From: Candidatus Latescibacterota bacterium
GTDB lineage: Bacteria; Latescibacterota; UBA2968
Assembly (NCBI GenBank): GCA_965204745.1
Contig: OZ242010.1
Span: forward strand, 3,840,001-3,904,000
DNA length: 64,000 nt
Direction: 5' to 3'
Positions 216-33,832 of this stretch are shown here, in pieces. Each line of letters opens with the position of its first letter. Position 1 is the first letter of the stretch. The notes under the pieces are model-generated. The model did no database searches. It saw only the letters and a list, made by a program, of their open reading frames with translations, and had not been told where the DNA came from. A program made the translations under genes and the position numbers.

Positions 216-468
216 AACGACCTTCCTTTCTCAAGATAGCGATCACGGCTAAAAAATAAAATCATGCTACGCGGATAAAAGGCGAAAATCACCCCTTGTA
301 ACCGTCTCGTTGACAATTCATTACAAAGATGTGTTAAACCCTTAGCCCACGTCAAAAAAACGCCATCGGCAAATCGCTGATGGCGTTTGTGTTTGTTGGG
401 CGCGCAGGTTGTGTTGCCACATCCTTGAGACAACACACACGCAATATAGCCCAAATTCAACAGGGCAT

Positions 469-831
469 CTACGCTTTCCCAAGTGCGATTGCCTCGCCCG
501 GCTGGCGTTGGTCAATTCGTTCTCCAACAGACGGGATTTCTGCGAGTTCGCCTTGCAAACGCTGTTCTGCATGCCACAGATCGCACGCTTGTTGCATCCG
601 CAACCAAAGTTCTGGCCCATTGCCGACGAGTTTCCCTATTCTGAGTGCCATTTCCGGGGTCAAGGGATGCGTGCAAGCCAAAACGCGATGCAATGCTCGA
701 CGCGAGACCCCGAGGCGTTGCGCCGCTTCGGCAACCGATAAGGCGAGCGATGGCAAGACCTCTTCGCGCAAAATTTCGCCCGGATGAATCGGCACATGCG
801 CCAATAGACGCTTGACGAGATATTCTGTCAT
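469..831 (-). CDS. higA: HigA-family antitoxin / XRE HTH regulator (no HigB partner adjacent)
   Basis: PIHPGEILREE...LSVAEAAQRLGVSR...LTPEMALRIGKLVGNGPELWLRMQ..DLW signature; alternative GTG at 837 overlaps the upstream stop. Confidence 0.88.
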   Translation of the reverse strand: MTEYLVKRLLAHVPIHPGEILREEVLPSLALSVAEAAQRLGVSRRALHRVLACTHPLTPEMALRIGKLVGNGPELWLRMQQACDLWHAEQRLQGELAEIPSVGERIDQRQPGEAIALGKA

Positions 832-833
832 TG

Positions 834-3800
834 TCACCCTAAATGATGCCGCATATCCCACAATCTCTTTCGCAGTTGCTCAAAGGTGTAGAAGCTAAAG
901 CCAATGCCGCGAACCCGCCTGAGTTCGTCAAGGCGTTGAAATGGTCCATTCCGCGTGCGGTAAGCCACGATGTTTTTCGCAACGTCAGGGCGAAGGTCGA
1001 GCCTGTCCGCAAGCACTTTTGCACTTTCACTATTGATAAAGCGCAAGGCAGATTGTCCAATTTGTTCGGTTTGGGTGGCTTGTTCGTCGCTAATTTTGGC
1101 TTCTCTGTGGGCAGTGACCACATTGCTACTCAAACGATGCCGCATATCCCACAATCTCTTTCGCAGTTGCTCAAAGGTGTAGAAGCCGATGCCGCGAACC
1201 CGCCTGAGTTCGTCAAGGCGTTGAAACTGCCCGTTCTGTGTGCGGTAGGCCACGATTTTTTTCGCAACGTCAGGGCTGCGGAGCTTTCCAAACTCGTCTG
1301 CAAGCGAATCCGCGCTTGCACTATTGATGAATTGCAAGGCAGATTGTTCAAATTGTTCGGTGGCGGATTGGGTGGCTTGTTCGTCGCTAATTTTGGCTTC
1401 TCTGTGGGCAGTGACCACATTGCTACTCGCTGGTAGTTCCGGGTTCTCAAAGCGAGGTTTGTCCGTTCTTTTTGGGGGTTGCGAATGTTCTTGGGGCAGA
1501 GCAGATGGTTTTTCAGGCTGTTCAGCGGTGGTCGGGATGTATTTCCCACCTTTGATAGAACCTTGCCGTTTCACCGCTGATCCCTTGTTGCTTGGCGGTG
1601 GCGAGGCTTGTTCGGACTTCGGGGCAGGGGCAGATGACAGACGGGTCATTGCTTCGTTGCCCTGCGGTCGCAATGACCAAAAAACTTCATCAACCGCTTT
1701 GAGCATCTCTTTTTTAATTTTCTCCATCTTGGCCTTAATTGGGGTAAAATCCCTTTCTTGAGAATTTTTGATATTGTCAATTTTTTCTGATAGGACATCC
1801 TGTTCATCAAGAGGAATCTTAGTAGAAAGTATCTCGAGATCGAGAGAATTGAGTTCTTTCATCAATAATTCAGCGGTGTGCTCGTCTTTGCGAATCGCAT
1901 CCTCGTACATTGCAAAAACGCTTTCAATCCCCCCTCTCAATTCAGTCTCAATCTCCTCTTTCGGCTGATTTTCCCTGCGGAAAAAGTCATGCAAAGACAC
2001 CCCATCCTCATCAAACGAGTATTCCTTGCCGCGGATGGCACTGTACGCGCTGATTCCCACAGGCTCAATGTCCACATCCTCAAGCGTCTCCTTTACCTCA
2101 TCCAAAATATCTTTTAAGTCGCTTGGACTTTTGAGATCTGCCTTGTTCAAAACCACGTAAAACGGCAATCCGTTCAGTTCCAGATCTTCTATGAAATCGA
2201 GATCGTCCTGTGGAATGGTACCGGTGGCGTCCAACCCAATCATCCAGATCAGGGCATCCCGGTCTTTTAGAACCTCGGCGGCGGTTTTCCTGTCCTCGCC
2301 GGTATTCCCTCCGGCCGGGTTGTAGCCCGGCGTGTCTATCAGACAGATATTTTCAAACAGACCTTCGTCTAAAGGGACTTCCACAGTAATATAAGGCATG
2401 TGGTCTTTGAGCTTAAAGGAAAATGACTCGACGAACCTGTGGGACAGTTGGCTGTAAAGGTCAGGCGCGATATCCACTGTGGCCCCGTCACGGGAGAATC
2501 CCTTGATAGAAACCTCGGGATTGGAGATCACAAAAGAGGGGATGGCTGTGGCGGGTTCGATGCCAACGGGCATTTTCACGTCTGGCTTTTTGATAAAGCT
2601 ATTGACGAACTCGGACTTGCCACTGCTGAAGCCCCCACCAATGGCAATGGATTTCTTCATGAAAGTGTGGGGGAAGGCCACGATCTCTTCCAAGCGTTTC
2701 TCGAGAGATTGCAATTTTTGCACGGCATCCGCCTCGTCGGCCAGCGAGGATTCCTCATTGGCAAAGTCCATAAACTCCTTGTCAAAGAGTTTCTTGAATT
2801 TCACAAATGCCTCATTTTCACTGGATTTGGGAGTAAGCAGGTCGGAGACCAATTTGTATTTCTGATCCAACTCATCGAAGTTGTGACGCGCTTTGGTCAA
2901 ATCGGTCTCTGTTTGATCGTGCTCCTCGCGCAACGCATTGTGCTCCTCATGCAACGCATTGAGGGCGTCCGTTTTCTCGGCATGTTTTTCGCGCTCTTCG
3001 GTCAGGGCCGTCGTTGTCTGGTTGTGTTCCTCCAACAATTTGGGCCAATCTGTCTGCATGTATTCCTCATGCAGTGAGTTGTATTTTTTTTGTTCATCGC
3101 GCAACTCGGCCTTTGTTTGCTCGTGTTCTGCACGCGCTTCGTCCAAGGCGGTCGTTGCACGCTCCAATTCCATTGTTGTCCGCTCGTGTTTTGCATGCAA
3201 CTGTTGAAGGTCATGCTGGGCCTTGTCTAAGGCGGCTGTTACGCGCTCGTGTTCTGCACGCGCTTCGTCCAAGGCCCCAGTTTTGCGATTCAAATCCGCC
3301 GTTGTCTGTTCGTGCGCTTTTTGCAACTGCTGAACGCGATGCCGGGCCTGCTCTAAATCGGTTGCTGTCCGATCATTCTTTTCCGTTAGGGCACCATGCG
3401 CTTTTTGCAACTGCTGAAAACGATGCCGTGAGTTGTCCAAGGCGGCCTTTGTCTGAGCGTGTTCTGCACGCGCTTCGCCCAAGGCCCCGGTTTTGCGATT
3501 CAAATCGACCGTTGTCTGCTCGTGCGCTTTTTGCAACTGCTGAACGCGATGCCGGGCCTGCTCTAAATCGGTTGCTGTCCGATCATTCTTTTCAGTTAGG
3601 GCACCATGCGCGGTTTGCAACTGCTGAAAACGATGCCGCGAGTTGTCCAAGGCGGTCTTTGTCTGAGCGTGTTCTGCATGCGCTTCGCCCAAGGCCCCGG
3701 TTTTGCGATTCAAATCGGCCGTTGTCTGTTCGTGCGCGGTTTGCAACTTTGCCAAATTTTTGGTCGCACGCTCGTATGCTACACGCAACTTCTGATAGAC

Positions 3801-3845
3801 TGGCCGATTTTGAATAAATTTTTCCCAAAGAGATTTCAGACTCAT
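834..3845 (-). CDS. Dynamin-like GTPase with N-terminal repetitive coiled coil and two C-terminal ComEA-like helix-hairpin-helix modules
   Basis: G1 GGGFSSGKS, G3 DTPG, G4 NKAD; twice AKxIVAYRTxNGxFQRLDELRRVRGIG; start overlaps upstream stop (ATGA). Confidence 0.85.
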   Translation of the reverse strand: MSLKSLWEKFIQNRPVYQKLRVAYERATKNLAKLQTAHEQTTADLNRKTGALGEAHAEHAQTKTALDNSRHRFQQLQTAHGALTEKNDRTATDLEQARHRVQQLQKAHEQTTVDLNRKTGALGEARAEHAQTKAALDNSRHRFQQLQKAHGALTEKNDRTATDLEQARHRVQQLQKAHEQTTADLNRKTGALDEARAEHERVTAALDKAQHDLQQLHAKHERTTMELERATTALDEARAEHEQTKAELRDEQKKYNSLHEEYMQTDWPKLLEEHNQTTTALTEEREKHAEKTDALNALHEEHNALREEHDQTETDLTKARHNFDELDQKYKLVSDLLTPKSSENEAFVKFKKLFDKEFMDFANEESSLADEADAVQKLQSLEKRLEEIVAFPHTFMKKSIAIGGGFSSGKSEFVNSFIKKPDVKMPVGIEPATAIPSFVISNPEVSIKGFSRDGATVDIAPDLYSQLSHRFVESFSFKLKDHMPYITVEVPLDEGLFENICLIDTPGYNPAGGNTGEDRKTAAEVLKDRDALIWMIGLDATGTIPQDDLDFIEDLELNGLPFYVVLNKADLKSPSDLKDILDEVKETLEDVDIEPVGISAYSAIRGKEYSFDEDGVSLHDFFRRENQPKEEIETELRGGIESVFAMYEDAIRKDEHTAELLMKELNSLDLEILSTKIPLDEQDVLSEKIDNIKNSQERDFTPIKAKMEKIKKEMLKAVDEVFWSLRPQGNEAMTRLSSAPAPKSEQASPPPSNKGSAVKRQGSIKGGKYIPTTAEQPEKPSALPQEHSQPPKRTDKPRFENPELPASSNVVTAHREAKISDEQATQSATEQFEQSALQFINSASADSLADEFGKLRSPDVAKKIVAYRTQNGQFQRLDELRRVRGIGFYTFEQLRKRLWDMRHRLSSNVVTAHREAKISDEQATQTEQIGQSALRFINSESAKVLADRLDLRPDVAKNIVAYRTRNGPFQRLDELRRVRGIGFSFYTFEQLRKRLWDMRHHLG
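843..1428 (-). repeat. Tandem duplication (~300 bp unit) encoding the two HhH modules
   Basis: Near-identical blocks ~843-1128 and ~1137-1428; SSNVVTAHREAKISDEQATQ...LWDMRH occurs twice. Confidence 0.9.
3245..3750 (-). repeat. 210-bp (70-aa) tandem repeat in the coiled coil, about 2.5 copies
   Basis: cgatgccgYgagttgtccaagg at 3421 and 3631; QQLQKAHEQTTxDLNRKTGAL repeated. Confidence 0.9.
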
Positions 3846-6070
3846 GGGTTCACCTCCACTTTTTTCAATTCATCCTTGAGGCGGCTGATTCGCTTCAATT
3901 CCATTTCCTTGTTTTCAATGGATTTCTCAAGCGCGTCAAGTTCCTTTTTCGTGCGCTCTAGAAGTTGCTCATCCAACCGAACTCTCTTCATTTCTGCGGT
4001 GAGACTTCTCGTGTACTCTTTTATTTTTGTATTAAATTCATTGTAAAGTGTGAAGCGAAGGTATTCGTCCGCCTCCTGAGCAAATTTTTCCGCCTTTTTG
4101 CCCTTCAACACGCCTTGGGGTCTTAAGGACTTTGGCAGTGAGGGGCCAAACGTATCGTCAGGAAGGGATATGTCGGCGACAGCATTCCTGATGACCCGCC
4201 TGATCATCGAGGCTTCCAAACTCTCATCATCAAAGTGTTCCTGCAAAATTTTGGCCATCTCCTTGATGAGTTCATTCCGCCACTCAGTCTTTTTATTTTC
4301 TGCTATGGTTTTGAACTCTCTACCGATATCACTGGCAAACAGCGACAGGTCATGAGAAACGGCATTGGTGCGAATGGTCTTACTGGTTTCACTATACTGT
4401 TCGTAACCACCTCCAAACCATCTGGCAATCCCTGCAAAAACCCCTCTCTTTTTACGCTCTTTGGTTTCAGTCACTTCGCCTATCGCACTCTCGATATTTT
4501 TGCTTAACGCCTGTTTTTGTCTGTCGAGTTCTCCCCGAAGTTCCCGATTCAGCGAGTTTGTGCGCTGTGTCACCGATTCCTCGTAATCCAATTTGATGTC
4601 CCATGAAGCATCATTGAGAGCCTTTGTCAATGTTGCGCGCTGTGCCTTGATTTTTCCAATATCCGTACGTTTGATTTCGGACTGCCGCTCGTCGGCAAAC
4701 GCGAGCAGGCCATCCTTCAAGGCGTGCAGAGACTGGCGTTTGGCGTGGATGTACTCCATCCGCCTTTGCGTGATGATGTCGTCCTTTTTCGCGCGCACCG
4801 TCGAGACGATGTTTTGGATGGTCAAGATGTTGGACAACTTGTTCAAATTGACGCCCGACAAGCGCGCGTCCGCATCGGAGAAATAGTCTGGATAATCGTA
4901 CAGCAGATTGCCCCAAGCGTTCTGCATCCCCTCGTCCCACTTCTCCCGTTGTCCAAAAAGTTGCTTCAGGCTTTCGCACATTCCCGACGAGTAAATGATC
5001 TTGCTCTGGCCTTCGAGCAACTGATCGTAGGTATCGCCCACTTCGGGATTGTTATCTTTCAAATCCGCGATAACCTTGCTCAATTGGTCTCCAAGCACCC
5101 TGGTGAGACTCTCCAACACGCGATCCAACTGCCCGCCGTTCTCATCCTTCAGATTGCCGAAAAGCTGGGTATCTGCTTGGGCCGCCACGACAAACAGTTC
5201 CCGGATGCCTTCCTTACTGGTGATTCGGTCCATCAATTCCAAATCCACAGTATTCAAAAACTGCCCCGACGGACTGAGAACCAACACCACATCGCATTGG
5301 TTCAAGTGTTCTCGCGTCCGCTCCTCGCGGGACTGCACCGGGTCGTTGATGCCCGGCGTATCCACGATTTCTATGTCCTTCAGATTTTCTTGGGGAAGCC
5401 GAATGTTGACGCTTTTGGTAAAGGGCATGTACCTGCCATCCGCGCCGACATACGCCTCTAATTGAGCCTGCAAATCAGAATCACTGCCGAACTCGAGAAG
5501 GCGATTCTCGGTCAAGGATTCCCCGGTAGCCTCCATTTTCTCGTATTGTTCATGCGCGGCAGAGAGTTCGACATTCTCCCGCATCTCCCGATTGGCCCTG
5601 CTTTTCGCCCGCTCCTCTGGGGATCGAGATCGGGTTTTTCTCTGCTGTTCTTGCGCTAGGGCTGTCCTGTACCGGTCGTCCCATTGCCTGTTGTACTCGT
5701 CGTAATTCGCCTTGATATTCTCAATGTCGGCTTGGGTAAAAAATTCCACTTCCGCGGACGGGGTTTTGCCATGCGAAAGCGTGGTCAAGGCCGCGGTCAT
5801 CGGCGTAGCGGCCTTGGGGAGAATGCTTTGCCCGTCAAAGATGAGGGCGTTCAGCAACGAGGATTTCCCGGATTTGACCCGGCCCAAGATGCCGATCTTC
5901 AGCAGACGACCTTCAGTGGCAATCGACTCCAAATCCGTTTGCAAGTTCTCGCTCGTGGGAACGCTGTGTTCCCGACAGATGCGTTGGGCCTCGTCCCCGA
6001 GAAAATCGTGGTAACGGCCCGTGACACCTTCCAACTTTTCCCTGAAAGCGACAATTCCATTCTGATTCAT
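3842..6070 (-). CDS. Dynamin-like GTPase (Leo/Eleos-like, ~742 aa); native RBS displaced by IS701
   Basis: GRVKSGKSS, KAATPMTAALT, DTPGINDP; true start MNQNGI at 6070 lies within the IS target duplication. Confidence 0.88.
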   Translation of the reverse strand: MNQNGIVAFREKLEGVTGRYHDFLGDEAQRICREHSVPTSENLQTDLESIATEGRLLKIGILGRVKSGKSSLLNALIFDGQSILPKAATPMTAALTTLSHGKTPSAEVEFFTQADIENIKANYDEYNRQWDDRYRTALAQEQQRKTRSRSPEERAKSRANREMRENVELSAAHEQYEKMEATGESLTENRLLEFGSDSDLQAQLEAYVGADGRYMPFTKSVNIRLPQENLKDIEIVDTPGINDPVQSREERTREHLNQCDVVLVLSPSGQFLNTVDLELMDRITSKEGIRELFVVAAQADTQLFGNLKDENGGQLDRVLESLTRVLGDQLSKVIADLKDNNPEVGDTYDQLLEGQSKIIYSSGMCESLKQLFGQREKWDEGMQNAWGNLLYDYPDYFSDADARLSGVNLNKLSNILTIQNIVSTVRAKKDDIITQRRMEYIHAKRQSLHALKDGLLAFADERQSEIKRTDIGKIKAQRATLTKALNDASWDIKLDYEESVTQRTNSLNRELRGELDRQKQALSKNIESAIGEVTETKERKKRGVFAGIARWFGGGYEQYSETSKTIRTNAVSHDLSLFASDIGREFKTIAENKKTEWRNELIKEMAKILQEHFDDESLEASMIRRVIRNAVADISLPDDTFGPSLPKSLRPQGVLKGKKAEKFAQEADEYLRFTLYNEFNTKIKEYTRSLTAEMKRVRLDEQLLERTKKELDALEKSIENKEMELKRISRLKDELKKVEVNP

Positions 6071-6071
6071 G

Positions 6072-7151
6072 TAGGACTTACGCAAAAAAGAACAGGATCG
6101 AACCCCCATCCTCACTTTGGAGGTCTGTATGGCGAAACCAACGCGCTTGGATTACTGCCAGTATCTGCTTAGCAGTCCGCTCAATTATACCCTGACTCAT
6201 TTCGCAGATCACAGCGACCGGTTCACGCATGATATGCTCAACCGCTATCTGGGTGGGGATCGCGTCTCGCCGCGTGTGATCTGGAAAAACGTCAAACCCC
6301 ACCTCACGTCGACCGCAAAGGGCGTAATTCTCTTTGATGACACGGTCTTAGATAAGCGCTATGCCAAAAAGATGGCTCTCGTGCGTCGGCAATACAGTGG
6401 CAATGCGAAGGGGGTCATCTCGGGGATCGGTGTGGTGACGTGTGTGTATGTCAATCCGATTCAAGATCGGTTTTGGCTGATTGACTATCGCATTTACGAT
6501 CCGCAAGGGGATGGAAAAACCAAGTTAGACCACGTCAAAGAGATGTTGTCACTCTTGGTCTATCACAAAAAACTGCCTTTTGAGCGAGTGGTGATGGATA
6601 CTTGGTATGCCACCAAAGCGGTCATGCTTCACATTGAGCACTTGCAAAAGACCTATTACTGTCCTATCAAAAAGAATCGCCTCGTGGACGATTCGTCAGG
6701 TGAAAACCCCTATCAACGGGTCGATGCCTTAACTTGGACAAAACGCGAACAGGCCACAGGAAAACGCATGAAACTCAGAGGGTTCCCTAAAAACCACAAG
6801 GTGAACGTATTCCGGGTCGCGTCTGCGACGAGACGCACGGCGTATATCGTAACCAACGACTTGACTCAAACCGACCCGTCAGTGGCACAAGCGGTGTGCC
6901 ACTTGCGTTGGAAGATTGAGCAAGTTCACCGGGAAGCAAAACAGGTAACGGGGCTTGAAAAGTGTCAATGCCGATTGGCACGCATTGTGCGAAACCACAT
7001 CGCGTGTGCCTTTCTCGTTTGGGGACGACTGACCCAAGTCGCCTATCAGACTGGACAAACCATCTATCAAGTCAAACATGGCTTATGGGAGGATTATTTG
7101 AGACAACAACTCAAAACACCGGCGATACCAATGACCCTGGCGTAAGTCCTA
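6072..7151 (+). mobile_element. IS701-family element, copy 1
   Basis: TIRs TAGGACTTACGC / GCGTAAGTCCTA; 5-bp TSD TCATG at 6067-6071 and 7152-7156. Confidence 0.92.
6129..7145 (+). CDS. IS701-family DDE transposase
   Basis: FDDTVLDK, RRQYSG, MDTWY, RWKIEQVHREAKQVTG. Confidence 0.9.
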   Translation: MAKPTRLDYCQYLLSSPLNYTLTHFADHSDRFTHDMLNRYLGGDRVSPRVIWKNVKPHLTSTAKGVILFDDTVLDKRYAKKMALVRRQYSGNAKGVISGIGVVTCVYVNPIQDRFWLIDYRIYDPQGDGKTKLDHVKEMLSLLVYHKKLPFERVVMDTWYATKAVMLHIEHLQKTYYCPIKKNRLVDDSSGENPYQRVDALTWTKREQATGKRMKLRGFPKNHKVNVFRVASATRRTAYIVTNDLTQTDPSVAQAVCHLRWKIEQVHREAKQVTGLEKCQCRLARIVRNHIACAFLVWGRLTQVAYQTGQTIYQVKHGLWEDYLRQQLKTPAIPMTLA

Positions 7152-7259
7152 TCATGTTCGTTCTCCTTGTAAGGCGGTAAGAGGTAAGGCGGGAGACGGG
7201 AGAGGTGAGACAACCCCGCCCAACGCCTAAGTGGTCAGCGGAAGTTTAGCCACAAAAAC

Positions 7260-8444
7260 GGCGTTGTTGCATAAATGTTGTCGTGGCGAAGTTCGTCCCT
7301 TTCCCGCGAGATTTAAGCCCCTCTTTCTATGGGATAGGACACGGGTTTCGCGATCCTCATCATGCGATTGAGCACCGCACATCCCAACCGCGCTTCCGTT
7401 TCTTGGTTCTTCTGACTTCGTGCGCGCAACTGCCGTCCAATGAGTTGCTTGTAGCGGCATAGTTGGGTTTCAACGACCGAGCGACGATGATAGCCACTGG
7501 TGCGTTTCCACTTTCGGCGGCCTTGACGCCGGATGGCTCGGATGATTTCATCGCGGGCGAGGGGAGGTGCCTTCCTGTTTCCGTGTTGTTCAATTTTGGC
7601 ATCATGGCGCGGGGGAAGAAGAGGTCGGATGGGGGCTCCTTGTTTGGGGGCGGCGCATGTGTTGAAGACCTTGCGTTTGTCATAGCCGCCATCGGCACCC
7701 ATCGTATGGACAGGGGCCAGGACTTGATCGAGCAAGGGGTTGACCTGCCAAGCGTCATCAACGCTTGCCGAAGTCAGGGTCTGTGCGACAATCTCCCCGG
7801 TGGCCTCATCGACGCCGATGTGCAATTTGCGCCAAGTCCGGCGCTTGTAAAAGCCGTGTTGACGCACCTTCCATTCCCCTTCGCCATACACTTTCAGGCC
7901 GGTGGAATCCACCACTAAATGGATCGGCGCATGACGGGATTGGACAGGTAAATCCACGTTCAAATCGCCCTGTCGCCGGCAGAGGGTCGTGTGATCGGGC
8001 ACGCGCAAAGCCACCCCCATCAACGCCAGGATGGACGTGAGAAACCCCTCGGTTTGACGCAGGGGCAAGGCAGAGACCAAGCGCAACATCAATGCCGTTT
8101 GAATAGCCAAATCTGAAAAGGTGTTTTGCCGCCCCCGTTGCGTTGGCCCTTGATGGTACCACCCCCGAAGGGCTTGCGGCGTGATCCAAAACGTCAGACT
8201 GCCCCGCTGCTTGAGACCGGCCTCGTAGGCCGCCCAGTTCCGAACCCGATAGACAGGCGCACAGCGCGGGCGACGCGGGCGACGCGGGGACTTGACAGCG
8301 GTCTTGGAAGCGGTTATCTTGGGCATGACAGGTTCCTGGTGAGAAAGGGTGAGTGGTTTCGATGATCTATATGCCCAATCTACGAAGGAGCCTGTCTTTT
8401 TGCAATCCCAACTTGCAGGTAATTGCTATTTATGCAACAAAGCC
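7260..8444 (-). mobile_element. IS5-family (IS903 group) element
   Basis: TIRs GGCGTTGTTGCATAAA / TTTATGCAACAAAGCC; 9-bp TSD CACAAAAAC at 7251-7259 and 8445-8453. Confidence 0.93.
7313..8326 (-). CDS. IS5/IS903-group transposase
   Basis: YRVRNWAAYEAGLKQRGSLTFW, VDSTGLKVYGEGEW, ADGGYD, GYHRRSVVET. Confidence 0.93.
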   Translation of the reverse strand: MPKITASKTAVKSPRRPRRPRCAPVYRVRNWAAYEAGLKQRGSLTFWITPQALRGWYHQGPTQRGRQNTFSDLAIQTALMLRLVSALPLRQTEGFLTSILALMGVALRVPDHTTLCRRQGDLNVDLPVQSRHAPIHLVVDSTGLKVYGEGEWKVRQHGFYKRRTWRKLHIGVDEATGEIVAQTLTSASVDDAWQVNPLLDQVLAPVHTMGADGGYDKRKVFNTCAAPKQGAPIRPLLPPRHDAKIEQHGNRKAPPLARDEIIRAIRRQGRRKWKRTSGYHRRSVVETQLCRYKQLIGRQLRARSQKNQETEARLGCAVLNRMMRIAKPVSYPIERGA

Positions 8445-8533
8445 CACAAAAACACAAAAAACACAAGCGGGGTACAACTGGCGATAGGCCGTTCAAAGAC
8501 ACAATCGGAGACTATCTCCCCTTCCCGAATCGG

Positions 8534-8876
8534 GGTGAAAGTCTTGTAGTTAATTTGTTGGTCATTGTTGATTGTTTGGTGTATGTTTTGTGTCGTATTT
8601 GTTCTTTGAAAAGTGAAGCGGGATAGGCCGTTGCTGATAAAGACATGTCTGCGACAGCGACAACCAAGCGGCAGACCTAAAATCTCCTATCAGCATAAAA
8701 TCCACAGGAAGAATAGTAAATAATAGACTATTCACTTGCGCGGCTAGCTTGACCGAGCAAGTAAAAAACGGACATGGAGGTGCTGTAAGACGGACAAGAG
8801 GTTGTATGTGCTTGGACGCTGGCCTGATGAAGCGTCAATTTCAGTTGGTCAACAATGATCAACAAGAAAGGAGCGG
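8534..8876 (+). mobile_element. Non-autonomous IS607-type mini-element (no tnpA/tnpB) carrying an omegaRNA scaffold
   Basis: Ends in AAGGAGCGG like the tnpB element; inverted subterminal TTGTTG(G/A)TCATTGTTG at both ends; removal at GG restores hairpin TCTCCCC..GGGGAGA. Confidence 0.72.
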
Positions 8877-8896
8877 AGAGCCTATTGTTCAAAAAG
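8739..8896 (+). ncRNA. Putative TnpB omegaRNA (scaffold to 8876 plus ~20-nt flanking guide)
   Basis: 8765-8838 aligns with 63442-63515: AAAACGGACRTGGAGRTGCYGTAAGACGGACAMGAGGTTGTAWGTGCKTGGACGC...TGAAGCGTCAAT. Confidence 0.65.
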
Positions 8897-10597
8897 CACC
8901 GGCGTTGCCAGCAAGCGGATGTTCTCTCGAATGCTGGTCAGATCGGCAATGGTTTGTTCAATGTCCTGAAGCGCGTCCTTCTTGGCCCGCTCGGCTTCGG
9001 CGATTTCGCTTTGTTTGGCTTTGATCTGCGAATCCAAGGCCGCCGCGTTCTCATCGATGAGGGCGTTCACTTGCTCCTCGAAATTTTTGGGCAGTTCGCT
9101 CCGCAATTTGCTTTTGATGGACGGGATAACGCTTCCAATCAGTTGGTTGCGAATCTGATCCTCCTGCTTCCGCTTTTGAAAGTAGGCAATAATGTCGGGC
9201 AGGAAGATAATGACGAGTTCCAACAGTGGCATCACAAAACTGGTGGTAATGGCGAGCGTGGTGGCGACAACACGGTACAAATTCCGCCCACCTTTGACTG
9301 CACTGCCGATCCCTTTGATAATCGCGCTCCCCGTGGAAAGAATCTGTGGGGCGTGGTACACTGCTTTTTCCAGCCAATTTTCATCTCTCGTATAAGAGGA
9401 CAGAATGTGGTCAATGCCTTTGACGCTGTTAGACAAGTCTTCGCCGATCTGTCTGTTCAACTGCTCCATTTCGGTTTTCACATGGCTCCCGAGCGAGGTG
9501 CGGAGGATTTCCGCCATCTGTTGCTGAAAAGCATCTTCGCCGCCGGACAGGGCGATGTTGGTCAACTCCTCTACGGCATTGTTCAAGTCCGCGCCCACGC
9601 GCTCCACAATGGTATTGACACGGGTCGTGGAATACCGCGAGCGGATGTCCTGAATCATAGCGTTTTTCTCGCGCTCCAAATCCCGGATGGCTGTGGCGAG
9701 TTTGTCAATGGCCGCTTGGTTCTCGCCCTCGTCCTTTTTCAAGGAACTGATCCAAGTGTTCAAGCTGCCGTCAATATCGAAGAAACTCGCCTCCAAGCTG
9801 GGGCGATAAAGCCGGGTGAAAAGTTTTTCCGGATCGATGGCATCGAGCGTTTTTCCAAGACTCGCCCCGCCATCCATGTCCACGGGCACGACCACATCGG
9901 CAAAGTCGAAATCGTCTTGGAGCCGATCCTTGACGTTCTGCGCGATCTCTCGAACCTCGGATTCCGAGCGCAAATTCGCCTTGCTCAAAAACACGGAAAA
10001 CGGCTTGTCGAACTCGTCAAACTCGGACAACTGCCGATGGGTCGATTGCGTGACCGTGCCCTCTTCCACGCTGATCAAGACCGCGTAATGGCTCCCTCGG
10101 TCAAGGTACGTCAAAATGGCTTTCTGGTGCAAATCCAGCGGCGAATCAAACCCCGGCATATCCACGAGCACGAGGGGCGCGATCCCCTTGAGTTGCTCGC
10201 TGTTGAGAAAGACCTCGACATATTGATATTGCGCCGCCTTTTCCTTAATCGCGCCGATCTCCTCAATGGCGTAGCGATCCGCCTCGCCATTTTCCATGAT
10301 GGCCTCGACGCGCTCCCTGTCGGAATAACGCAACTCGGTTGCCAGCGCGGTTTCCGGGGTGATGTTGACGGGCAGGAGTTCAGACCCCAAAAACGAGTTG
10401 ATCAACGTGCTCTTGCCCGCGCTGAATGCCCCGATCACCGGCACGACCAACTCGGCCTCGGCGATCTCCCGTTTCAACGCCTCTGCGGACTGGATGTTTT
10501 TCCCAAGTTCCTCAAACACCCCCAAAGCACTCGCCCTAGTCAATTCCGCCTTCACCCCATCCAAATAATCGCAAAACGTCCTCTGCGTCTGAAGCAT
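8882..10597 (-). CDS. Dynamin-like GTPase (Leo/Eleos-like, 571 aa)
   Basis: GAFSAGKS, PETALATE, DMPGFDS, SKAN; C-terminal hydrophobic paddle ATTLAITTSFVMPLLELVIIFLP. Confidence 0.9.
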   Translation of the reverse strand: MLQTQRTFCDYLDGVKAELTRASALGVFEELGKNIQSAEALKREIAEAELVVPVIGAFSAGKSTLINSFLGSELLPVNITPETALATELRYSDRERVEAIMENGEADRYAIEEIGAIKEKAAQYQYVEVFLNSEQLKGIAPLVLVDMPGFDSPLDLHQKAILTYLDRGSHYAVLISVEEGTVTQSTHRQLSEFDEFDKPFSVFLSKANLRSESEVREIAQNVKDRLQDDFDFADVVVPVDMDGGASLGKTLDAIDPEKLFTRLYRPSLEASFFDIDGSLNTWISSLKKDEGENQAAIDKLATAIRDLEREKNAMIQDIRSRYSTTRVNTIVERVGADLNNAVEELTNIALSGGEDAFQQQMAEILRTSLGSHVKTEMEQLNRQIGEDLSNSVKGIDHILSSYTRDENWLEKAVYHAPQILSTGSAIIKGIGSAVKGGRNLYRVVATTLAITTSFVMPLLELVIIFLPDIIAYFQKRKQEDQIRNQLIGSVIPSIKSKLRSELPKNFEEQVNALIDENAAALDSQIKAKQSEIAEAERAKKDALQDIEQTIADLTSIRENIRLLATPVLFEQ

Positions 10598-10677
10598 GGT
10601 TGTCTCCTCTGTCTGAATCGCGGATTGTCGCGGATTTATGGATTGCGCGGATTAAACCCGTCCATTCGCGTTTTGTC

Positions 10678-10706
10678 ATAATAACAATAAAAGGCCATTG
10701 CGTCAA
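10678..10706 (-). promoter_or_regulatory. Sigma70-type promoter of the dynamin operon
   Basis: TTGACG-17 nt-TATTAT on the minus strand, ~80 bp upstream of the start. Confidence 0.65.
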
Positions 10707-21867: not shown

Positions 21868-22353
21868 TTATCGTGCTTCGCTTCCACCGCCCCATAAGCT
21901 CCAGCCGCCTACATGCGGAGTTCTGCGGTGGACTTCAGAATCTACCAACTGCATGCGCCCCGGTTCTTCGTGGTGATGCCAAGTATATCCTTCGGGCTTA
22001 TCGCCATTGCGGATTTGTTCTAGTTGCCTGTCGGTGAATTGCTCGGTGTCGAGCGTGCCGTTCTCGTAAGCCTGATGCAACTGCTCGTTGCAATACTTGT
22101 CATGCAGATAACGAGAATCCTCGAGTTGATCCTCGGGGAGTTGGGTTTCATAGCGGCAATGTTCAGAGAAATCGTGTATCAACCCCTGTTCTTTCAAATC
22201 CGCGAGGCGAATCTCATACAAAATTTCAGCGCGGAAAGACTCATCTTGGAGCATCACATCAACTCGCTCACCGATGACTTCTTGCGGAATCTCTTTCTCG
22301 ATTGCCGAAGGGGTTTCGCTCAACTCGGTTGCCGTAGTCTCAATAACCATCAC
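21868..22353 (-). CDS. HNH/EndoVII-fold WHH nuclease toxin
   Basis: PEGYTWHHHEEPGRMQLVD..H..HVGG. Confidence 0.9.
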   Translation of the reverse strand: MMVIETTATELSETPSAIEKEIPQEVIGERVDVMLQDESFRAEILYEIRLADLKEQGLIHDFSEHCRYETQLPEDQLEDSRYLHDKYCNEQLHQAYENGTLDTEQFTDRQLEQIRNGDKPEGYTWHHHEEPGRMQLVDSEVHRRTPHVGGWSLWGGGSEAR

Positions 22354-25300
22354 ATCACTCGCTTTCTAATGGCGTTGCGTATCTCTTGCACGATTCGCTT
22401 TCTAATGGCGTTGCGTATCTCTTGCACGATCTCGCGGTCGTCAACGAGTAGCTTTTTGTCAACGATTTTATCAAGTGCTTCGGGTAGTTTAATGTCTGTT
22501 TTCTTTGATTTCTTCGTTCCACGTTCATAAATAGCCAGATTTGCTACGCTCTCCATGATTCTATCCCGACTGCTCTCACCCAGCCATTTGTCAAAGGCCG
22601 CCATGAACCGCACGCGATTAAAACGCAGGCGATCATCCCAAAGGCGATTAACAGCCTCTAAAACATCACCATCAATGACTCTTTCCTTCGCAAGCCCCAA
22701 AGTCAAAAAAAATAACACGCGGCAAAACCATTCGCGCAAGGCACGTTCTATGGTTTCATCAGTGACGTACATCAGTTGCTCTGCTTTTCTGGCCGTTTTT
22801 ATGGCTTCGGGCAAGAGATCGTCGAGTTCAGAATTTGAGAGAAATAACGAACGAAGCAATTTTATGGCTTCGGGCAAGAGATCGTCGAGTTCAGCGTTTG
22901 AAAGAAAAAGCGAATGGAGCAATCGCAGTGCGATGGCACGCAGGTCTCGGCTGTCCAGCAAGCCGCTCTCGTGTAATGCGAGTTCCGGCTCCTGGCCCTC
23001 GACTTTGATCCTTATATCTCCAATCGCCTCATTCGGCAGTTCATTAAAAACGGAAATTTCAACCGGCTTTGACATTCCCTCTTTGTGCGCGAGTGCCGTG
23101 CCCGCAGAAAGTTGGTTGAGGTACCGGCATTCCTGTTCCTCCAATCCCAAGCCCGTGCCGACGGCGATTTGGTCATCGATTGAAACGAGCCTGTGGATGA
23201 TCTTGGTGTTGGTGTTCTTGATGACATCCGGGGCGATTTTGGTCGGGATTTGCTCGGCGACAATCACGCCTTGGCCGTAGGAGCGCATCTCGGCAATGAG
23301 GTTGCAAAAAGACTCGACGGCTTTGCCTTTGGGATTGCCGATCATTTCACTGGTGCGCTCGGTTTGCACGTTTTTGAGCAACCTGTGCGCTTCTTCAATA
23401 ACCAAGACGTGGTGGAGATCATCCGTGTGTGTCAGAGTGCTTTCGCGGGCCGAACATTGCCGGTATTCGCTTACCAACGCGAGCATCAAACCGACGAAGA
23501 AGGCTTTGTCGTCGTCATCGGAAAGGGATTCGAGTTCAAACACAACGCGACCTTTTAGCAAATCCTCTATGTTTCTAAAATCGTGCGTGTTAAAGAGAAA
23601 GCCCTTCGCGCCAACGGCTAAGGATTCGAGACGGGCGACAATCGCGCTGCGGATATTGTCCTGCAATTCGCCTTTGTATTCCAATTCCTCTTTTACATAC
23701 CGGTTCACATCGTCGATCAAGTCTCTGATCGTGGGATAGATAAAGCGGTGAGTTTGGCAATCCGCGAACGTTTTTATTTTCACCCGCTGATGGTTGCCCG
23801 TGGTCAAGTTCCATCCGCGATCCTTGTAGATGTTGTAAATACATTTTTCGAGGATGTAGGGCATCGGCCCGTAGAGGGAGAAACTCGCGTAAAAGATGGA
23901 TTTGAGGTTGTCGATATGGGTGATGAGCGACACCCCGGGAAGCACCATAAACGGGTTGTGGCGTATTGGCGAAACACCCGAATCGCCAACCGTATAGACG
24001 CGCAAGTTGCCGTCGTATTTCGCATCGGTCAATAATCTGCGGTATTCCCTCTTGGCGGATTCGATGACGAGGAAGGGCGTGTCAATGCTGTGCAAGATGT
24101 GCTTGACTGTGGTCGTCTTGCCCGATCCGGTGAGGCCAGAGACAAAGATGTGTTTGCGGATGTCGTCTTTTGAGATGGTAAAGTCAGAGCCTTTTACAAC
24201 TCGTCCGTGTTCGGAAATGCGACCGATTGAATAACCTGCGCGGTCTCGGGTATCCGTCAGGCTCAAGGCGGGTTTGACGCGAATATCATAGCCGGGAACA
24301 GAAGAAAGCGGCGGGGCCATGAGCAAGGCGGCTTCGTCGCTCGACAAGAACGACAGCAATTTGTTGCCCGTGATGAGGGATCCCCCATCTCGCTCTTTGG
24401 GAACGAAGATCGGTATGTCGGCGGATAACGCACCGCTGACGTTTCGGATCGGCAGGGCGTCGGGATCGGCCTTGATGAGTTCGCCTGCCAAGGTGCCGGA
24501 TAAAATTTGCGAGGCCGTACGCGATCCTGTCGCGTATGTGATAAAACTTTCCCAAAGCCCGGTGTTCAAGCCATTACGCAATCGGGTGATCAGCTTATCG
24601 GCGATACTTTCCAACTCCCTCGCAAGCGTGTTCTGCTGTTCGTAGGAAAGACTGCGCCCGACGTTTTCCGACCAGCCTACGGAATCGGTTTCCGAACGGC
24701 TTGAGAATTTTGTTTTATTGTAAGAGTACCCCACAGAAGGCAGAAGCATCAGCCCCATCAGCCCCATCAGCCCCGTCATACCCACATTGAATCCATGAGA
24801 ACGCGATTCCCCTTCTGTCTCTTGAACCGCATGGCTTTGGTTTATGCCTGCACTCTCTTCCAGCCCGATTTGCCGATTTGCCAGCGCGTGGCACTGATCT
24901 TTTCGGTTCATCAGTTCGTGAAGTTGCTGTGCCGTCTCGTATTTCGCAACAGGACGTGAGACTATCGCCAAGAGAAATTCCTGCCCATTCATGCTTCTTA
25001 TGACCGAAGACAGATCGAAGGTCTGTTTTTTCTTATCTATTTTCTGTGTCGGAATACCTGTGAGGACGCCGCCATGCTTTTGTTCCTTTAGCCTGTTGAC
25101 GATTCTTTCTCTATCGGATTCGATGCCTTTCCCGGGATAAACCCCCTGCAATTGTTCCCTGAACACATCCTTCACATCTTCCTCACCTCTGACTCCAAGA
25201 AAAATGTCAACCGTGCCGCCGCCATCTCCTGAAATGATCGTCGTAAGCGTATAGCCTGCTTGGGCGGCGGCGACAATCGCGGCTTGCTGTCTTTTGTAGA

Positions 25301-25553
25301 TCAGATCAGCCACATCTTGAGCATCGGCGGACACAGAAATCTCCCCAACTCGAAACAAATAGAGCGAATCGAGAAATCGCTCAATGTCGCCGCGACCTCG
25401 CATGACGTTTTCGCGCAGGGTATCGGTGTCCGTTGACGCAATGGTCCAAGGGAGAAGGTCCGAGAAAATTGCGTTGAGTTCCCGCGCCCCATCTTCCTGA
25501 TCAGGCACTTTCTGTTTTTCAAGAGCCTTTGTCATAAATGCCTCTCTTGTCAT
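22350..25553 (-). CDS. HerA/FtsK-superfamily ATPase (DUF87-like), 1067 aa
   Basis: Walker A GLTGSGKT, Walker B VIEEAH, EMRSYG, EQIP; Gly-rich hydrophobic stretch near aa 260. Confidence 0.88.
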   Translation of the reverse strand: MTREAFMTKALEKQKVPDQEDGARELNAIFSDLLPWTIASTDTDTLRENVMRGRGDIERFLDSLYLFRVGEISVSADAQDVADLIYKRQQAAIVAAAQAGYTLTTIISGDGGGTVDIFLGVRGEEDVKDVFREQLQGVYPGKGIESDRERIVNRLKEQKHGGVLTGIPTQKIDKKKQTFDLSSVIRSMNGQEFLLAIVSRPVAKYETAQQLHELMNRKDQCHALANRQIGLEESAGINQSHAVQETEGESRSHGFNVGMTGLMGLMGLMLLPSVGYSYNKTKFSSRSETDSVGWSENVGRSLSYEQQNTLARELESIADKLITRLRNGLNTGLWESFITYATGSRTASQILSGTLAGELIKADPDALPIRNVSGALSADIPIFVPKERDGGSLITGNKLLSFLSSDEAALLMAPPLSSVPGYDIRVKPALSLTDTRDRAGYSIGRISEHGRVVKGSDFTISKDDIRKHIFVSGLTGSGKTTTVKHILHSIDTPFLVIESAKREYRRLLTDAKYDGNLRVYTVGDSGVSPIRHNPFMVLPGVSLITHIDNLKSIFYASFSLYGPMPYILEKCIYNIYKDRGWNLTTGNHQRVKIKTFADCQTHRFIYPTIRDLIDDVNRYVKEELEYKGELQDNIRSAIVARLESLAVGAKGFLFNTHDFRNIEDLLKGRVVFELESLSDDDDKAFFVGLMLALVSEYRQCSARESTLTHTDDLHHVLVIEEAHRLLKNVQTERTSEMIGNPKGKAVESFCNLIAEMRSYGQGVIVAEQIPTKIAPDVIKNTNTKIIHRLVSIDDQIAVGTGLGLEEQECRYLNQLSAGTALAHKEGMSKPVEISVFNELPNEAIGDIRIKVEGQEPELALHESGLLDSRDLRAIALRLLHSLFLSNAELDDLLPEAIKLLRSLFLSNSELDDLLPEAIKTARKAEQLMYVTDETIERALREWFCRVLFFLTLGLAKERVIDGDVLEAVNRLWDDRLRFNRVRFMAAFDKWLGESSRDRIMESVANLAIYERGTKKSKKTDIKLPEALDKIVDKKLLVDDREIVQEIRNAIRKRIVQEIRNAIRKRVM

Positions 25554-30388: not shown

Positions 30389-30406
30389 CTGCTTCTTTAA
30401 TAGGAC

Positions 30407-31423
30407 TTACGCCAGGGTCATTGGTATCGCCGGTGTTTTGAGTTGTTGTCTCAAATAGTCCTCCCATAAGCCATGTTTGACTTGATAGATGGTTTGTCCG
30501 GTCTGATGGGCGACTTGGGTCAGTCGTCCCCAAACGAGGAAGGCACACGCGATATGGTTTCGCACAATGCGTGCCAATCGGCATTGACACTTTTCAAGTC
30601 CCGTCACCTGTTTTGCTTCCCGGTGAACTTGCTCAATCTTCCAACGCAAGTGACACACCGCTTGTGCCACTGACGGGTCGGTTTGAGTCAAGTCGTTGGT
30701 TACGATATACGCCGTGCGTCTCGTAGCAGACGCGACCCGGAATACGTTCACCTTGTGGTTTTTAGGGAACCCTCTGAGTTTAATGCGTTTCCCTGTGTCC
30801 TGTTCGCGTTTTGTCCAAGTTAAGGCATCGACCCGTTGATAGGGGTTTTCACCTGACGAATCGTCCACGAGGCGATTCTTTTTGATAGGACAGGAATAGA
30901 TCTTTTGTAAGTGCTCAATGTGAAGCATGACCGCTTTGGTGGCATACCAAGTATCCATCACCACTCGCTCAAAAGGCAGTTTTTTGTGATAGACCAAGAG
31001 CGACAACATCTCTTTGACGTGATCTAACTTGGTTTTCCCATCCCCTTGCGGATCGTAAATGCGATAGTCAATCAGCCAAAACCGATCTTCAACCGGATTG
31101 ACATACACACACGTCACCACACCGATCCCCGAGATGACCCCCTTCGCATTGCCACTGTATTGCCGACGCACGAGGGCCATCTTTTTGGCATAGCGCTTGT
31201 CTAAGACCGTGTCATCAAAGAGAATCACGCCCTTTGCGGTTGACGTGAGGTGGGGTTTGACGTTTTTCCAGATCTCACGCGGCGAGACGCGATCCCCACC
31301 CAGATAGCGGTTGAGCATATCATGCGTGAACCGGTCGCTGTGATCTGCGAAATGAGTCAGGGTATAGTTGAGCGGACTGCTAAGCAGATACTGGCAGTAA
31401 TCCAGGCGTGTTGGTTTCGCCAT
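30407..31423 (-). CDS. IS701-family transposase (copy 2, element 30401-31480)
   Basis: Near-identical to 6129-7145; same TIRs. Confidence 0.9.
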   Translation of the reverse strand: MAKPTRLDYCQYLLSSPLNYTLTHFADHSDRFTHDMLNRYLGGDRVSPREIWKNVKPHLTSTAKGVILFDDTVLDKRYAKKMALVRRQYSGNAKGVISGIGVVTCVYVNPVEDRFWLIDYRIYDPQGDGKTKLDHVKEMLSLLVYHKKLPFERVVMDTWYATKAVMLHIEHLQKIYSCPIKKNRLVDDSSGENPYQRVDALTWTKREQDTGKRIKLRGFPKNHKVNVFRVASATRRTAYIVTNDLTQTDPSVAQAVCHLRWKIEQVHREAKQVTGLEKCQCRLARIVRNHIACAFLVWGRLTQVAHQTGQTIYQVKHGLWEDYLRQQLKTPAIPMTLA

Positions 31424-31590
31424 ACAGACCTCCAAAGTGAGGATGGGGGTTCGATCCCGTTCTTTTTTGCGTAAGTCCTATTTGGGATGAATAATGGTCA
31501 ATCTTTTTGTTGACGTAAATAAAGATAGAATACCTATCACCATTTGTCAACCTTTTTTGGCATGAATAATAGTCAATCTTTTTGTTGACA

Positions 31591-32567: not shown

Positions 32568-32622
32568 TAGGACTTACGCAAAAAAGAACGGGACGCCCCC
32601 CATCCTCACATTGGAGGTCTGT

Positions 32623-33638
32623 ATGGCGAAACCAACGCGCCTGGATTACTGCCAGTATTGCTTAGTAGTCCGCACAACTATACCCTGACTCATTTCGCAG
32701 ATCACAGCGACCAGTTCACGCATGATATGCTCAACCGCACGCTGAGTGGGGATCGCGTCTCGCCGCGTGAGATCTGGAAAAACGTCAAACCCCACCTCAC
32801 GTCGACCGCAAAGGGCGTGGTTCTCTTTGATGATACGGTCCAAGACAAGCGCTATGCGAAAAAGATGGCCCTCGTGCGTCGGCAATACAGTGGCAATGCG
32901 AAGGGGGTCATCAATGGGATCGGTGTGGTGACATGTGTGTCTGTCAATCCGGTTACCGATCCGTTTTGGTTGATTGACTCTCGCATTTACGACCCAGAAG
33001 GGGACGGAAAAACCAAGTTAGACCCCGTCAAAGAGATGTTGTCACTCTTGGTCTATCACAAAAAGCTGCCTTTTGATCGGGTCGTGATGGATACTTGGTA
33101 TGCCACCAAAGCGGTCATGCTTCACATTGAGCACTTGCAAAAGACCTATTCCTGTCCTATTAAAAAGAATCGCCTCGTGGACGATTCGGCAGGTGAAAAC
33201 CCCTATCAACGGGTCGATGCCTTAACTTGGACAAAACGCGAACAGGCCACAGGAAAACGCATGAAACTCAGAGGGTTCCCCAAAAACCATAAGGTGAACG
33301 TATTCCGGGTTGCATCTCCTACGGGACGCACGGCGTATATCGTAACCAACGACTTGACGCAAACCGACCCGTCGGTGGCACAAGAGGTGTGCCACTTGCG
33401 TTGGAAGATTGAGCAAGTTCACCGGGAAGCAAAACAGGTAACGGGGCTTGAAAAGTGTCAATGCCGATTGGCACGCATTGTGCGAAACCACATTGCGTGT
33501 GCCTTTCTCGTTTGGGGACGACTGACCCAAGTCGCCCATCAGACCGGACAAACCATCTCTCAAGTCAAACATGGCTTATGGGAGGACTATTTGAGACAAC
33601 AACTCAAAACACCGGCGATACCAATGACCCTGGCGTAA
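32623..33638 (+). pseudogene. IS701 transposase copy 3 (element 32568-33644), frameshifted near the 5' end
   Basis: CAGTAT-TGC versus CAGTATCTGC in intact copies; several Y>S and other substitutions. Confidence 0.8.
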
Positions 33639-33832
33639 GTCCTATTTAATATTTTGGCGGAGTTCGTCGAGGGTGTCGCCTTGGGTGTGGATGCCGTATC
33701 CCAGGGCACTGGCGGCGTATCCACCGTCGAGTTCGTCCTCGGTGACTTCAAAGATGATTTCGGCCATGGCGATTCTTTCTGCTATGGTTATGCGAATGAA
33801 TTTTGAATGGTCAACCCCTGTATCTGAACCCT

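Follow-up and report, generated by a model that had tools for sequence, protein, structure and literature searches.

Why would a bacterium line up three dynamin-like GTPase genes, and why would the last of them end in modules of a DNA-binding kind? This question is raised by a locus of a Candidatus Latescibacterota bacterium (contig OZ242010.1, assembly GCA_965204745.1), which we analyzed within a window of 64,000 nucleotides (nt), the whole stretch to which all positions below refer. In the account of operons given in PMC6104087, bacterial dynamin-like proteins are mostly paired. A preliminary description of the window had proposed that three such genes, here named g1, g2 and g3, lie behind one promoter, the last two start/stop coupled with a higA-like gene, and that the third product could link nucleic-acid sensing to membrane remodelling. 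We find that the trio is a conserved, horizontally mobile, accessory three-gene family distinct from the Eleos anti-phage system, that g3 reads as an adaptor subunit with an interchangeable tail, and that the operon is split by mobile DNA in this genome. The three genes and the parts of g3 are as follows:

8882-10597, minus strand: g1, full-length GTPase of the bacterial dynamin-like protein (BDLP) type, 571 amino acids (aa); Dynamin_N 3.3e-19 (69.9 bits)
3842-6070, minus strand: g2, long soluble dynamin-like GTPase of DLP1/LeoBC size, 742 aa; Dynamin_N 1.3e-22 (81 bits)
834-3845, minus strand: g3, dynamin-like GTPase, 1003 aa; Dynamin_N 1.1e-5 (25.9 bits)
2826-3845, minus strand: g3 residues 1-340, coiled coil with tandem repeats of 70 aa (210 nt), found by Tandem Repeats Finder (TRF), repeat family D1
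1662-2825, minus strand: g3 residues 341-728, GTPase with a short helical bundle, from the AlphaFold2 (AF2) model (predicted local distance difference test, pLDDT, mostly above 85) and Foldseek
1386-1661, minus strand: g3 residues 729-820, Pro/Ser/Gln-rich linker, predicted disordered (pLDDT below 50, residues 389-480 of the modelled construct)
840-1385, minus strand: g3 residues 821-1002, two tandem ComEA-type helix-hairpin-helix (HhH) modules; HHH_3 2.3e-24, TIGR00426

All three proteins belong to the dynamin superfamily, g1 and g2 by profile and g3 by fold and hhalign. In agreement with the preliminary description, three co-oriented GTPase open reading frames (ORFs) of 571, 757 and 1003 aa are present on the minus strand, and all of them are intact. 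The 757-aa form of g2 (3842-6115) begins at a GTG at 6115, inside an insertion sequence (IS) of the IS701 family; the ATG at its residue 16, position 6070, yields the 742-aa form and aligns with the starts of the orthologues in G016 and G020, the two same-genus genomes with the operon that served as reference for junctions and orthologues (G000 is the genome of the window). The Pfam Dynamin_N cut-off of 27 bits is just missed by g3, in whose translation the motifs GxxxxGKS, DxPG and NKAD (G1, G3 and G4) are visible; in g1 and g2, as read from their translations, G4 departs from the consensus.

The AF2 model of g1 (mean pLDDT 77.9, 30-row alignment) includes neck and trunk, and its best Foldseek match is the Nostoc BDLP structure 2j69 over the full length (2.7e-16, query TM-score, TMq, 0.63), followed by IniA and Cj-DLP2. 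A hydrophobic stretch at residues 443-474 (Kyte-Doolittle mean over 19 residues, KD19, 2.26) sits at the tip and is conserved in G016 and G020; scanning the three proteins for such stretches returned g1 alone and none in g2 or g3. Judged from this model, g1 probably carries a hydrophobic membrane tip. For g3, the model of residues 341-1003 (663 aa, mean pLDDT 81.9, 70-row alignment) comprises the GTPase, a short bundle to which helices on either side of the GTPase contribute, a disordered linker of 90 residues and two confidently predicted HhH modules. Foldseek matched its core to IniA (9.3e-13), truncated mitofusin-1, BDLP and Cj-DLP, each at probability 1.0, and hhalign of g3 against the g1 family (99.4%, 5.5e-21) identifies g1 and g3 as paralogues. 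On the evidence of the model, the g3 core is therefore a short IniA/mini-mitofusin-like dynamin and a paralogue of g1. A complex prediction for g1 with this core (construct residues 1-388) scored 0.00 against a mark of 0.32 and, run without controls, is uninformative either way.

Both appendages of g3 named in the preliminary description were confirmed. In the coiled coil, TRF reports a period of 210 nt with 2.4 copies, 94% matches and a score of 911, while a repeat search lists three 210-nt copies (100/88/61%); the region matches SMC/JetC-type coiled-coil profiles, and the repeats are more numerous in G016 and almost gone in G020. The tail matches HHH_3 in two stretches with 85.7 bits (cut-off 27) and TIGR00426 with 60.2 bits (cut-off 53.1), and shows colinear alignments with two structures, ComEA 8dfk (1.3e-6) and the tandem HhH of 9yi2. 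Its two modules are 84% identical to each other and lie in a tandem duplication of ~291 nt that the repeat search places at 80-98% identity.

How general is this arrangement? A scan of one genome per species for g3 relatives yielded 52 loci, and phmmer searches of these with g1, g2 and the g3 core recovered the order g1-g2-g3 in 44. Six of the remaining eight lie on contigs of at most 7.6 kb; the other two, from Latescibacterota and with ample flank, hold g2-g3 only. The loci are spread over Latescibacterota, Pseudomonas, Campylobacterales, Helicobacteraceae, Comamonadaceae, Luteibacter, Pasteurellaceae, Moraxella, Leclercia, Treponema and other spirochaetes, Fusobacteriaceae, Fibrobacter and Planctomycetota. 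Plasmids carry the trio too: a P. aeruginosa megaplasmid, one of Calditerrivibrio and, in a more distant form, an IncF plasmid of E. coli. In all of these settings its genes are annotated just as 'dynamin family protein'. Within the phylum the operon is present in 8/168 genomes and 2/49 genera, within the genus in 3/21 genomes, and its flanks differ among G000, G016 and G020. Patchy presence in phylum and genus, differing flanks and plasmid carriage mark the module as accessory.

Several variants were seen among these loci. A second Latescibacterota genus holds ankyrin-tailed trios at two syntenic, housekeeping-flanked sites (L014, L018, L020 and L021; L015-L017 and L019), with two loci in three of the five genomes that have a match; g1 is duplicated in L014 and missing from L015 and L019. 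On the IncF plasmid (L066, 3908-11496), the g3 of the distant trio has 405 aa and 29% identity, and an 829-aa protein annotated 'CFI-box-CTERM domain-containing' follows with overlapping stop and start and no PADLOC match. A second g3-like gene or dynamin-like fragments lie downstream in L044, L046, L053, L057, L059 and L062 (spirochaetes and Pasteurellaceae); L055 likewise carries a dynamin-like fragment, and in the spirochaete loci these alternate with zinc-ribbon proteins.

The tail of g3 is the part of the trio that changes. Its length ranges from 417 to 1188 aa across the loci, and a hand count among the 120 best homologue clusters listed gave HHH_3 (PF12836) in 20, one of them labelled Gemmatimonadetes, and ankyrin in 61, some with an FGE-sulfatase domain; the other listed clusters have no known tail. 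An HhH tail confined to this one protein, which had been named beforehand as an outcome that would count against a role for it, is thus not what was found. Both same-genus genomes with the operon have the tail as well, G016 with three HhH modules and G020 with two IF2_N-like modules ahead of its two HhH modules. HhH tails and ankyrin tails are intermingled in a tree built from the GTPase core, and well-supported branches force at least three changes of each (70 rows picked by eye from the 120 listed, with 50 fragments or near-duplicates omitted; quick search, SH-aLRT support only, midpoint root). HhH modules share 62-84% identity within a genome and 37-59% between genomes, a pattern in the sequences that fits independent duplication or homogenisation keeping at least two copies. 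Spirochaete loci instead have separate genes downstream of g3, which encode tetratricopeptide repeat (TPR), leucine-rich repeat (LRR) plus zinc-ribbon, and FGE-sulfatase proteins. The scan of flanking ORFs at large also contains Sel1-repeat proteins. We therefore read g3 as an adaptor subunit with an interchangeable tail (HhH, ankyrin, ankyrin plus FGE-sulfatase, IF2_N-like or none). Nucleic-acid sensing, the role first proposed for g3, would thus be a specialisation of certain lineages, the HhH modules being one of several exchangeable tails on a general adaptor.

ComEA-type HhH domains bind double-stranded DNA without sequence preference. By analogy with this family, the g3 tail should do the same, which raises the question of whose DNA it meets. 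One answer is that g3 ties the nucleoid or replicating DNA to the membrane dynamin pair for chromosome positioning or division, as a housekeeping link. E. coli CrfC, which works with the DNA-loaded clamp, would be the model; in NCBIfam, g1 weakly resembles CrfC (1.2e-7; 30.5 bits, cut-off 1146) and DynA as well, and one source annotates a relative as 'GTPase involved in cell partitioning and DNA repair'. A housekeeping function agrees poorly with an operon found in so few genomes of the phylum and genus, at different sites in three genomes, on plasmids, with IS disruption tolerated here and with a tail that is ankyrin or absent in most relatives, and we consider it quite improbable.

About an even chance is given here to a different answer, namely that the trio is an accessory, probably defensive or stress-related, membrane-remodelling module that g3 aims at DNA. 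In such a module, g1 and g2 would pair with each other at the inner membrane to remodel it, and g3, whose HhH tail is multivalent and set on a long arm of coiled coil, would join this heterotypic pair. g3 would bring or activate GTPase assembly where DNA meets membrane, for example where phage or plasmid DNA enters. In the Latescibacterota sponge lineage the aiming part would be the disordered linker with two (elsewhere three) ComEA-type HhH modules, while ankyrin, TPR or LRR tails would direct the machine to a protein in other lineages.

We infer the defence role from genomic context. WYL regulators often accompany defence systems, and they are found co-oriented with the operon in 17/52 loci; seven of these genes lie 40-800 bp upstream (Pasteurellaceae, Amphibiibacter, Luteibacter, Pseudomonas, Moraxella and a Planctomycetota contig). 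On the P. aeruginosa megaplasmid, the neighbours of a WYL gene and the trio are a ZorC that is partial and a ZorD that is complete (PADLOC 2.3e-211 and 0); integrases and IS elements also occur in the vicinity. In Luteibacter the gene immediately downstream of g3 is GmrSD, and in two betaproteobacterial loci g3 is followed by a UvrD-like ATPase. As an observation on the megaplasmid record itself (L067/L064, 11013-23209), ZorC matches the C-terminal part of its profile only and there is no room for ZorA or ZorB, as if this gene cassette or an IS had displaced part of a Zorya system.

Several findings weigh against a defensive, DNA-directed module. The flanks in the window are metabolic (cytochrome c, UxuA-like, BNR and a pyridoxal phosphate (PLP) enzyme), and the window was rejected as a defence island on this ground. 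At the ten loci from Latescibacterota, the flanking genes are of a housekeeping kind and partly syntenic, and a WYL gene is absent, so that the context within the phylum is unlike a defence island. Known defence families are sparse among the 147 nearest flanking ORFs (WYL 6, mad8 3, IetA 2), a scan that took the three nearest ORFs per side at 25/52 loci, omitting four near-syntenic Latescibacterota loci, many similar Pseudomonas loci and short contigs, and that did not display single-ORF families. PADLOC v2.0 does not recognise the trio as a defence system. The two amply flanked loci with g2-g3 only indicate that g1 is not always required. Finally, in the HhH modules of this genome the first hairpin is without the usual glycine-rich turn while the second keeps GIG, so DNA binding by the tail is not assured. 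No g3 relatives were found in a phage record collection, which speaks neither for nor against a defence role.

A bolder form of the module reading extends it beyond this lineage: the WYL-linked trio would be a widespread new class of mobile immune or DNA-surveillance machine, with the short third dynamin as exchangeable targeting subunit, and in the sponge-symbiont Latescibacterota the multivalent HhH tail, on a coiled-coil arm of varying length, would detect foreign DNA that crosses or lies at the inner membrane and trigger GTP-driven remodelling by g1 and g2 (for example sealing, excising or vesiculating the entry site). We put this forward tentatively and think it rather doubtful; if true, bacteria would have an equivalent of Mx-type dynamins whose direct target is nucleic acid.

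Membrane remodelling could also be turned outward. In a vesicle or host-interaction machine, the trio would drive membrane-vesicle release, a role also proposed for LeoABC and for IniA/IniC of mycobacteria, and g3 would pick the cargo, DNA via HhH here and host or bacterial proteins via ankyrin in relatives. Such a machine would suit a sponge symbiont, and the sequence is present in runs labelled sponge metagenome; the best fold match of g3 is IniA, and parts of the literature link dynamin-like proteins to vesicle release in mycobacteria. Moreover, ankyrin tails dominate the Latescibacterota paralogues, at housekeeping, syntenic sites, and the vesicle measurements in PMC4159319 have deletion of LeoAB halving vesicle-associated Tat-GFP and OmpA. 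However, g2 and g3 are without a hydrophobic stretch, the genes found beside the trio in other taxa (WYL, Zorya, GmrSD, integrases) suggest a conflict system, and the same type of LeoABC pair was shown in later work to be anti-phage (10.1101/2022.05.11.491447). On balance, vesicle release is an unlikely role.

In the genome of the window, the operon is interrupted. The preliminary description placed the three dynamin genes behind a single promoter, which does not hold here: ~2.8 kb of nested mobile DNA separate g1 from g2, where the spacing in G016 and G020 is only 0-12 nt. In the operon direction, the end of g1 is followed by an inserted block, a short junction remnant, an IS701-family element and the g2 ATG:

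7171-8884, no strand assigned: inserted block, delimited by comparison with the IS-free G016 junction; stretches 7171-7259 and 8445-8531 are unique
7260-8444, minus strand: IS5-family element; transposase ORF 7313-8326, NF033579 5.3e-93
8532-8876, within the inserted block: 345-bp repeat, with two more genome copies at 98% identity
7152-7170, minus strand: 19-nt remnant of the original g1-g2 junction with an AAGGAG ribosome-binding site and ATGA, 100% match to G016
6073-7151, plus strand: IS701-family element, ends read; transposase 6117-7145, NF049921 3.4e-116

The g1 stop codon TAG stands exactly at the start of the inserted DNA and thus probably stems from it; g1 ends in agreement with that of G020 and has lost a few C-terminal residues at most. 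The IS5-family element is flanked by a 9-bp direct repeat, CACAAAAAC, as target duplication and has ~17 near-full copies in the genome at 95-97% identity, and the 345-bp repeat may be a small non-autonomous mobile element. The IS701-family element (1079 bp) is present in the genome as 13 near-full copies, of which six, this one among them, are identical, which indicates that the IS is currently active and that this insertion is recent. Copies within the window lie at 6073-7151, 30400-31480 and 32568-33645 (100, 97 and 94% identical). The target duplication CATGA preserves the g2 ATG; the ribosome-binding site was left beyond the element, now 1.1 kb away from g2.

Alleles without these insertions exist in related populations, as seen from contigs of two runs from different studies, X1 and X4, in which 6066 connects to 7152, and 7259 to 8878 by way of nine other letters. 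This comparison used assembled contigs and joints seen in two studies, and depth and uncovered parts were not interpreted. No RNA run was among the listed sequencing runs that contain the sequence. Beside the old junction, 7171-7259 is a GGTAAG/GGCGG-rich short-repeat stretch. It varies in length between strains, one X4 contig having 15 additional letters of this type after 7168.

The operon is split here, with g2, g3 and the higA-like gene cut off from the g1 promoter and g2 cut off from its ribosome-binding site, and the three-dynamin system is probably impaired in this strain. It is conceivable, although we lean against it, that the locus in this genome is an inactivated relic in which g2, g3 and the higA-like gene are unexpressed and the intact frames reflect the recency of the insertion. 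The identity of this IS701 copy to five others, the stranded ribosome-binding site and a terminator-like hairpin in the IS end just upstream of the g2 ATG (6113-6088, minus strand) argue for such a relic, as do the IS-free alleles in other samples, where the X1 depth, not interpreted as a value, is similar to that of flanking genes. Against it stand the three intact frames, the alternative GTG start within the IS end that gives the 757-aa g2, and the possibility of read-through or an outward IS promoter.

The signals around the operon and the gene at its end are the following:

10678-10706, minus strand: sigma-70-like promoter candidate upstream of g1, TTGACG-17-TATTAT with TG, 10/12 matches
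354-390, minus strand: intrinsic-terminator-like hairpin with T-run at the operon end, from sequence reading; the scan lists the same hairpin on the plus strand
469-831, minus strand: higA-like helix-turn-helix (HTH) gene of the Xre family, 120 aa; TIGR02607 3e-29, 100.7 bits against a cut-off of 47.7

Promoter-like sites are not enriched in the region (8 observed, 7.4 expected in shuffles), and the candidate upstream of g1 is for this reason weak evidence of a promoter; a GAGGAG motif lies 7 nt before the g1 ATG. The coupling of g2 and g3 is as first described, the g2 stop and g3 start overlapping as ATGA with a GGAGG motif upstream. For g3 and the higA-like gene, the claimed coupling is seen in this genome, where the g3 TGA, 2 nt and the ATG at 831 follow one another and the terminator-like hairpin comes after the gene, but such a gene is absent downstream of g3 in G016 and G020. 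As a conserved part of the operon it was rejected, being absent beside the operon in these two genomes and in all 52 related loci; the single relative among the latter, in L057, is weak (3.3e-5) and lies ~8 kb from its operon. The ORF list contains no gene of higB size beside it, and no HigB profile search was run. Five further higA-like genes, 29-40% identical, lie in the genome outside the window. Antisense to g1, a 608-aa open frame (8855-10681, plus strand) spans nearly all of the gene and is probably a shadow ORF. Elsewhere in the window, a 1067-aa ORF (22350-25553, minus strand) has a faint AAA/P-loop match and no other Pfam family.

What would follow from a trio of this kind? Bacterial dynamin-like proteins have so far been known singly or in pairs, and here a fixed trio comes with what looks like a modular targeting subunit. 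The HhH version, in which the ligand of the dynamin machine is predicted to be DNA, is a simple case to test. Should the trio prove defensive, the defence catalogue would gain a system that is common but has gone unrecognised, the frequent WYL regulator would be explained, and a way would open to learn how dynamins of the Eleos type sense infection. Natural alleles with and without the IS elements, together with the variation in copy number of coiled-coil repeats and HhH modules, provide ready-made comparisons. As the preliminary description had surmised, no earlier description of a dynamin-HhH fusion was found in the literature searched, nor one of the trio, although some trios may be listed in supplements such as Table S5 of the Millman preprint, which lay outside the search. 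Searches for a WYL domain paired with a dynamin gave no relevant description, and those for three dynamin-like proteins in bacteria gave a note on a Helicobacter pylori genomic island only.

Among known proteins, ComEA (8dfk) resembles each module of the g3 tail along the whole HhH domain, with the second GIG hairpin kept; the g3 tail differs in being tandem and GTPase-fused, without a membrane anchor or signal sequence ahead of it. ComEA itself was rejected as an identity for the tail (TIGR01259, 75.3 bits against a cut-off of 152.35), and the ComEA-like gene of this genome sits elsewhere. Nostoc BDLP (2j68, 2j69) is the best full-length fold for g1 and has its hydrophobic tip at the equivalent place, but identity is 14%, and BDLP was studied as a homo-oligomer whereas g1 is part of a fixed trio. 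Mycobacterial IniA (6j72, 6j73) and truncated mitofusin-1 share with the g3 core the GTPase and short helical bundle at 14-18% identity; g3 is without a membrane-inserting tip and has an added coiled coil and HhH tail.

The Campylobacter jejuni pair Cj-DLP1/Cj-DLP2 (5owv, 5oxf) provides the best matches in the PDB by sequence, g2 to Cj-DLP1 (5owv_A, 7.6e-10) and g1 to Cj-DLP2 (1.1e-6), and its operon likewise has a long dynamin-like protein followed by a shorter one. The operon also holds an HcpA-like repeat protein, according to the gene layout in PMC6104087, which parallels the repeat-protein tails and downstream genes after g3. In contrast to the trio, the pair consists of two genes and has neither coiled-coil arm nor HhH tail. 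By the alignment coordinates to 5owv_A, ~65 residues precede the P-loop in g2 and ~145 in Cj-DLP1, and the N-terminal assembly domain of the Cj-DLP1 type, which accommodates helix 1 of Cj-DLP2, is therefore probably missing from g2.

The closest system in outline is LeoABC/Eleos. Eleos, named 'Dynamins' in the preprint, is described in its section on the system as two genes, LeoBC then LeoA, that protect against jumbo phages and need both P-loops (10.1101/2022.05.11.491447), and in enterotoxigenic E. coli (ETEC) LeoC and LeoB form a split dynamin-like protein upstream of LeoA, as laid out for this strain in PMC4159319. As in the trio, the dynamin-like GTPases lie next to each other, one of them long or split and the other ~570 aa in length, and weak profile similarity is present: with the PADLOC library version 2.0.0 (2023; newer model sets may differ), g1 matches LeoA (3.9e-12, 44 bits) and LeoBC (1e-9, 36 bits), and g2 orthologues of Pseudomonas match LeoBC (2.6e-13 and 6.6e-14). 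These matches and the order of long g2 then short g3, which mirrors LeoBC then LeoA, could suggest that the trio is the known Eleos system with an extra gene. Yet the membership implied by the first comparison with LeoABC was not borne out. The g1 matches are partial and low, the g2 and g3 of the window match no Leo model, DLP_LeoA_gen of NCBIfam reaches 19.3 bits against a cut-off of 325, and LeoA (4aur) ranks just 46th among the fold matches of g1. With the Leo profiles unmet by the window proteins, the trio is not Eleos proper, and plain identity with it is very improbable. Eleos has an architecture of two proteins, whereas the trio has three full GTPase genes in its 44 ordered loci, a third subunit with an adaptor tail and often a WYL regulator. 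The order of g2 and g3 and the weak but colinear Leo similarity, of g1 to LeoA and LeoBC and of g2 in the Pseudomonas orthologues, suggest a distant kinship with Eleos and a similar way of working.

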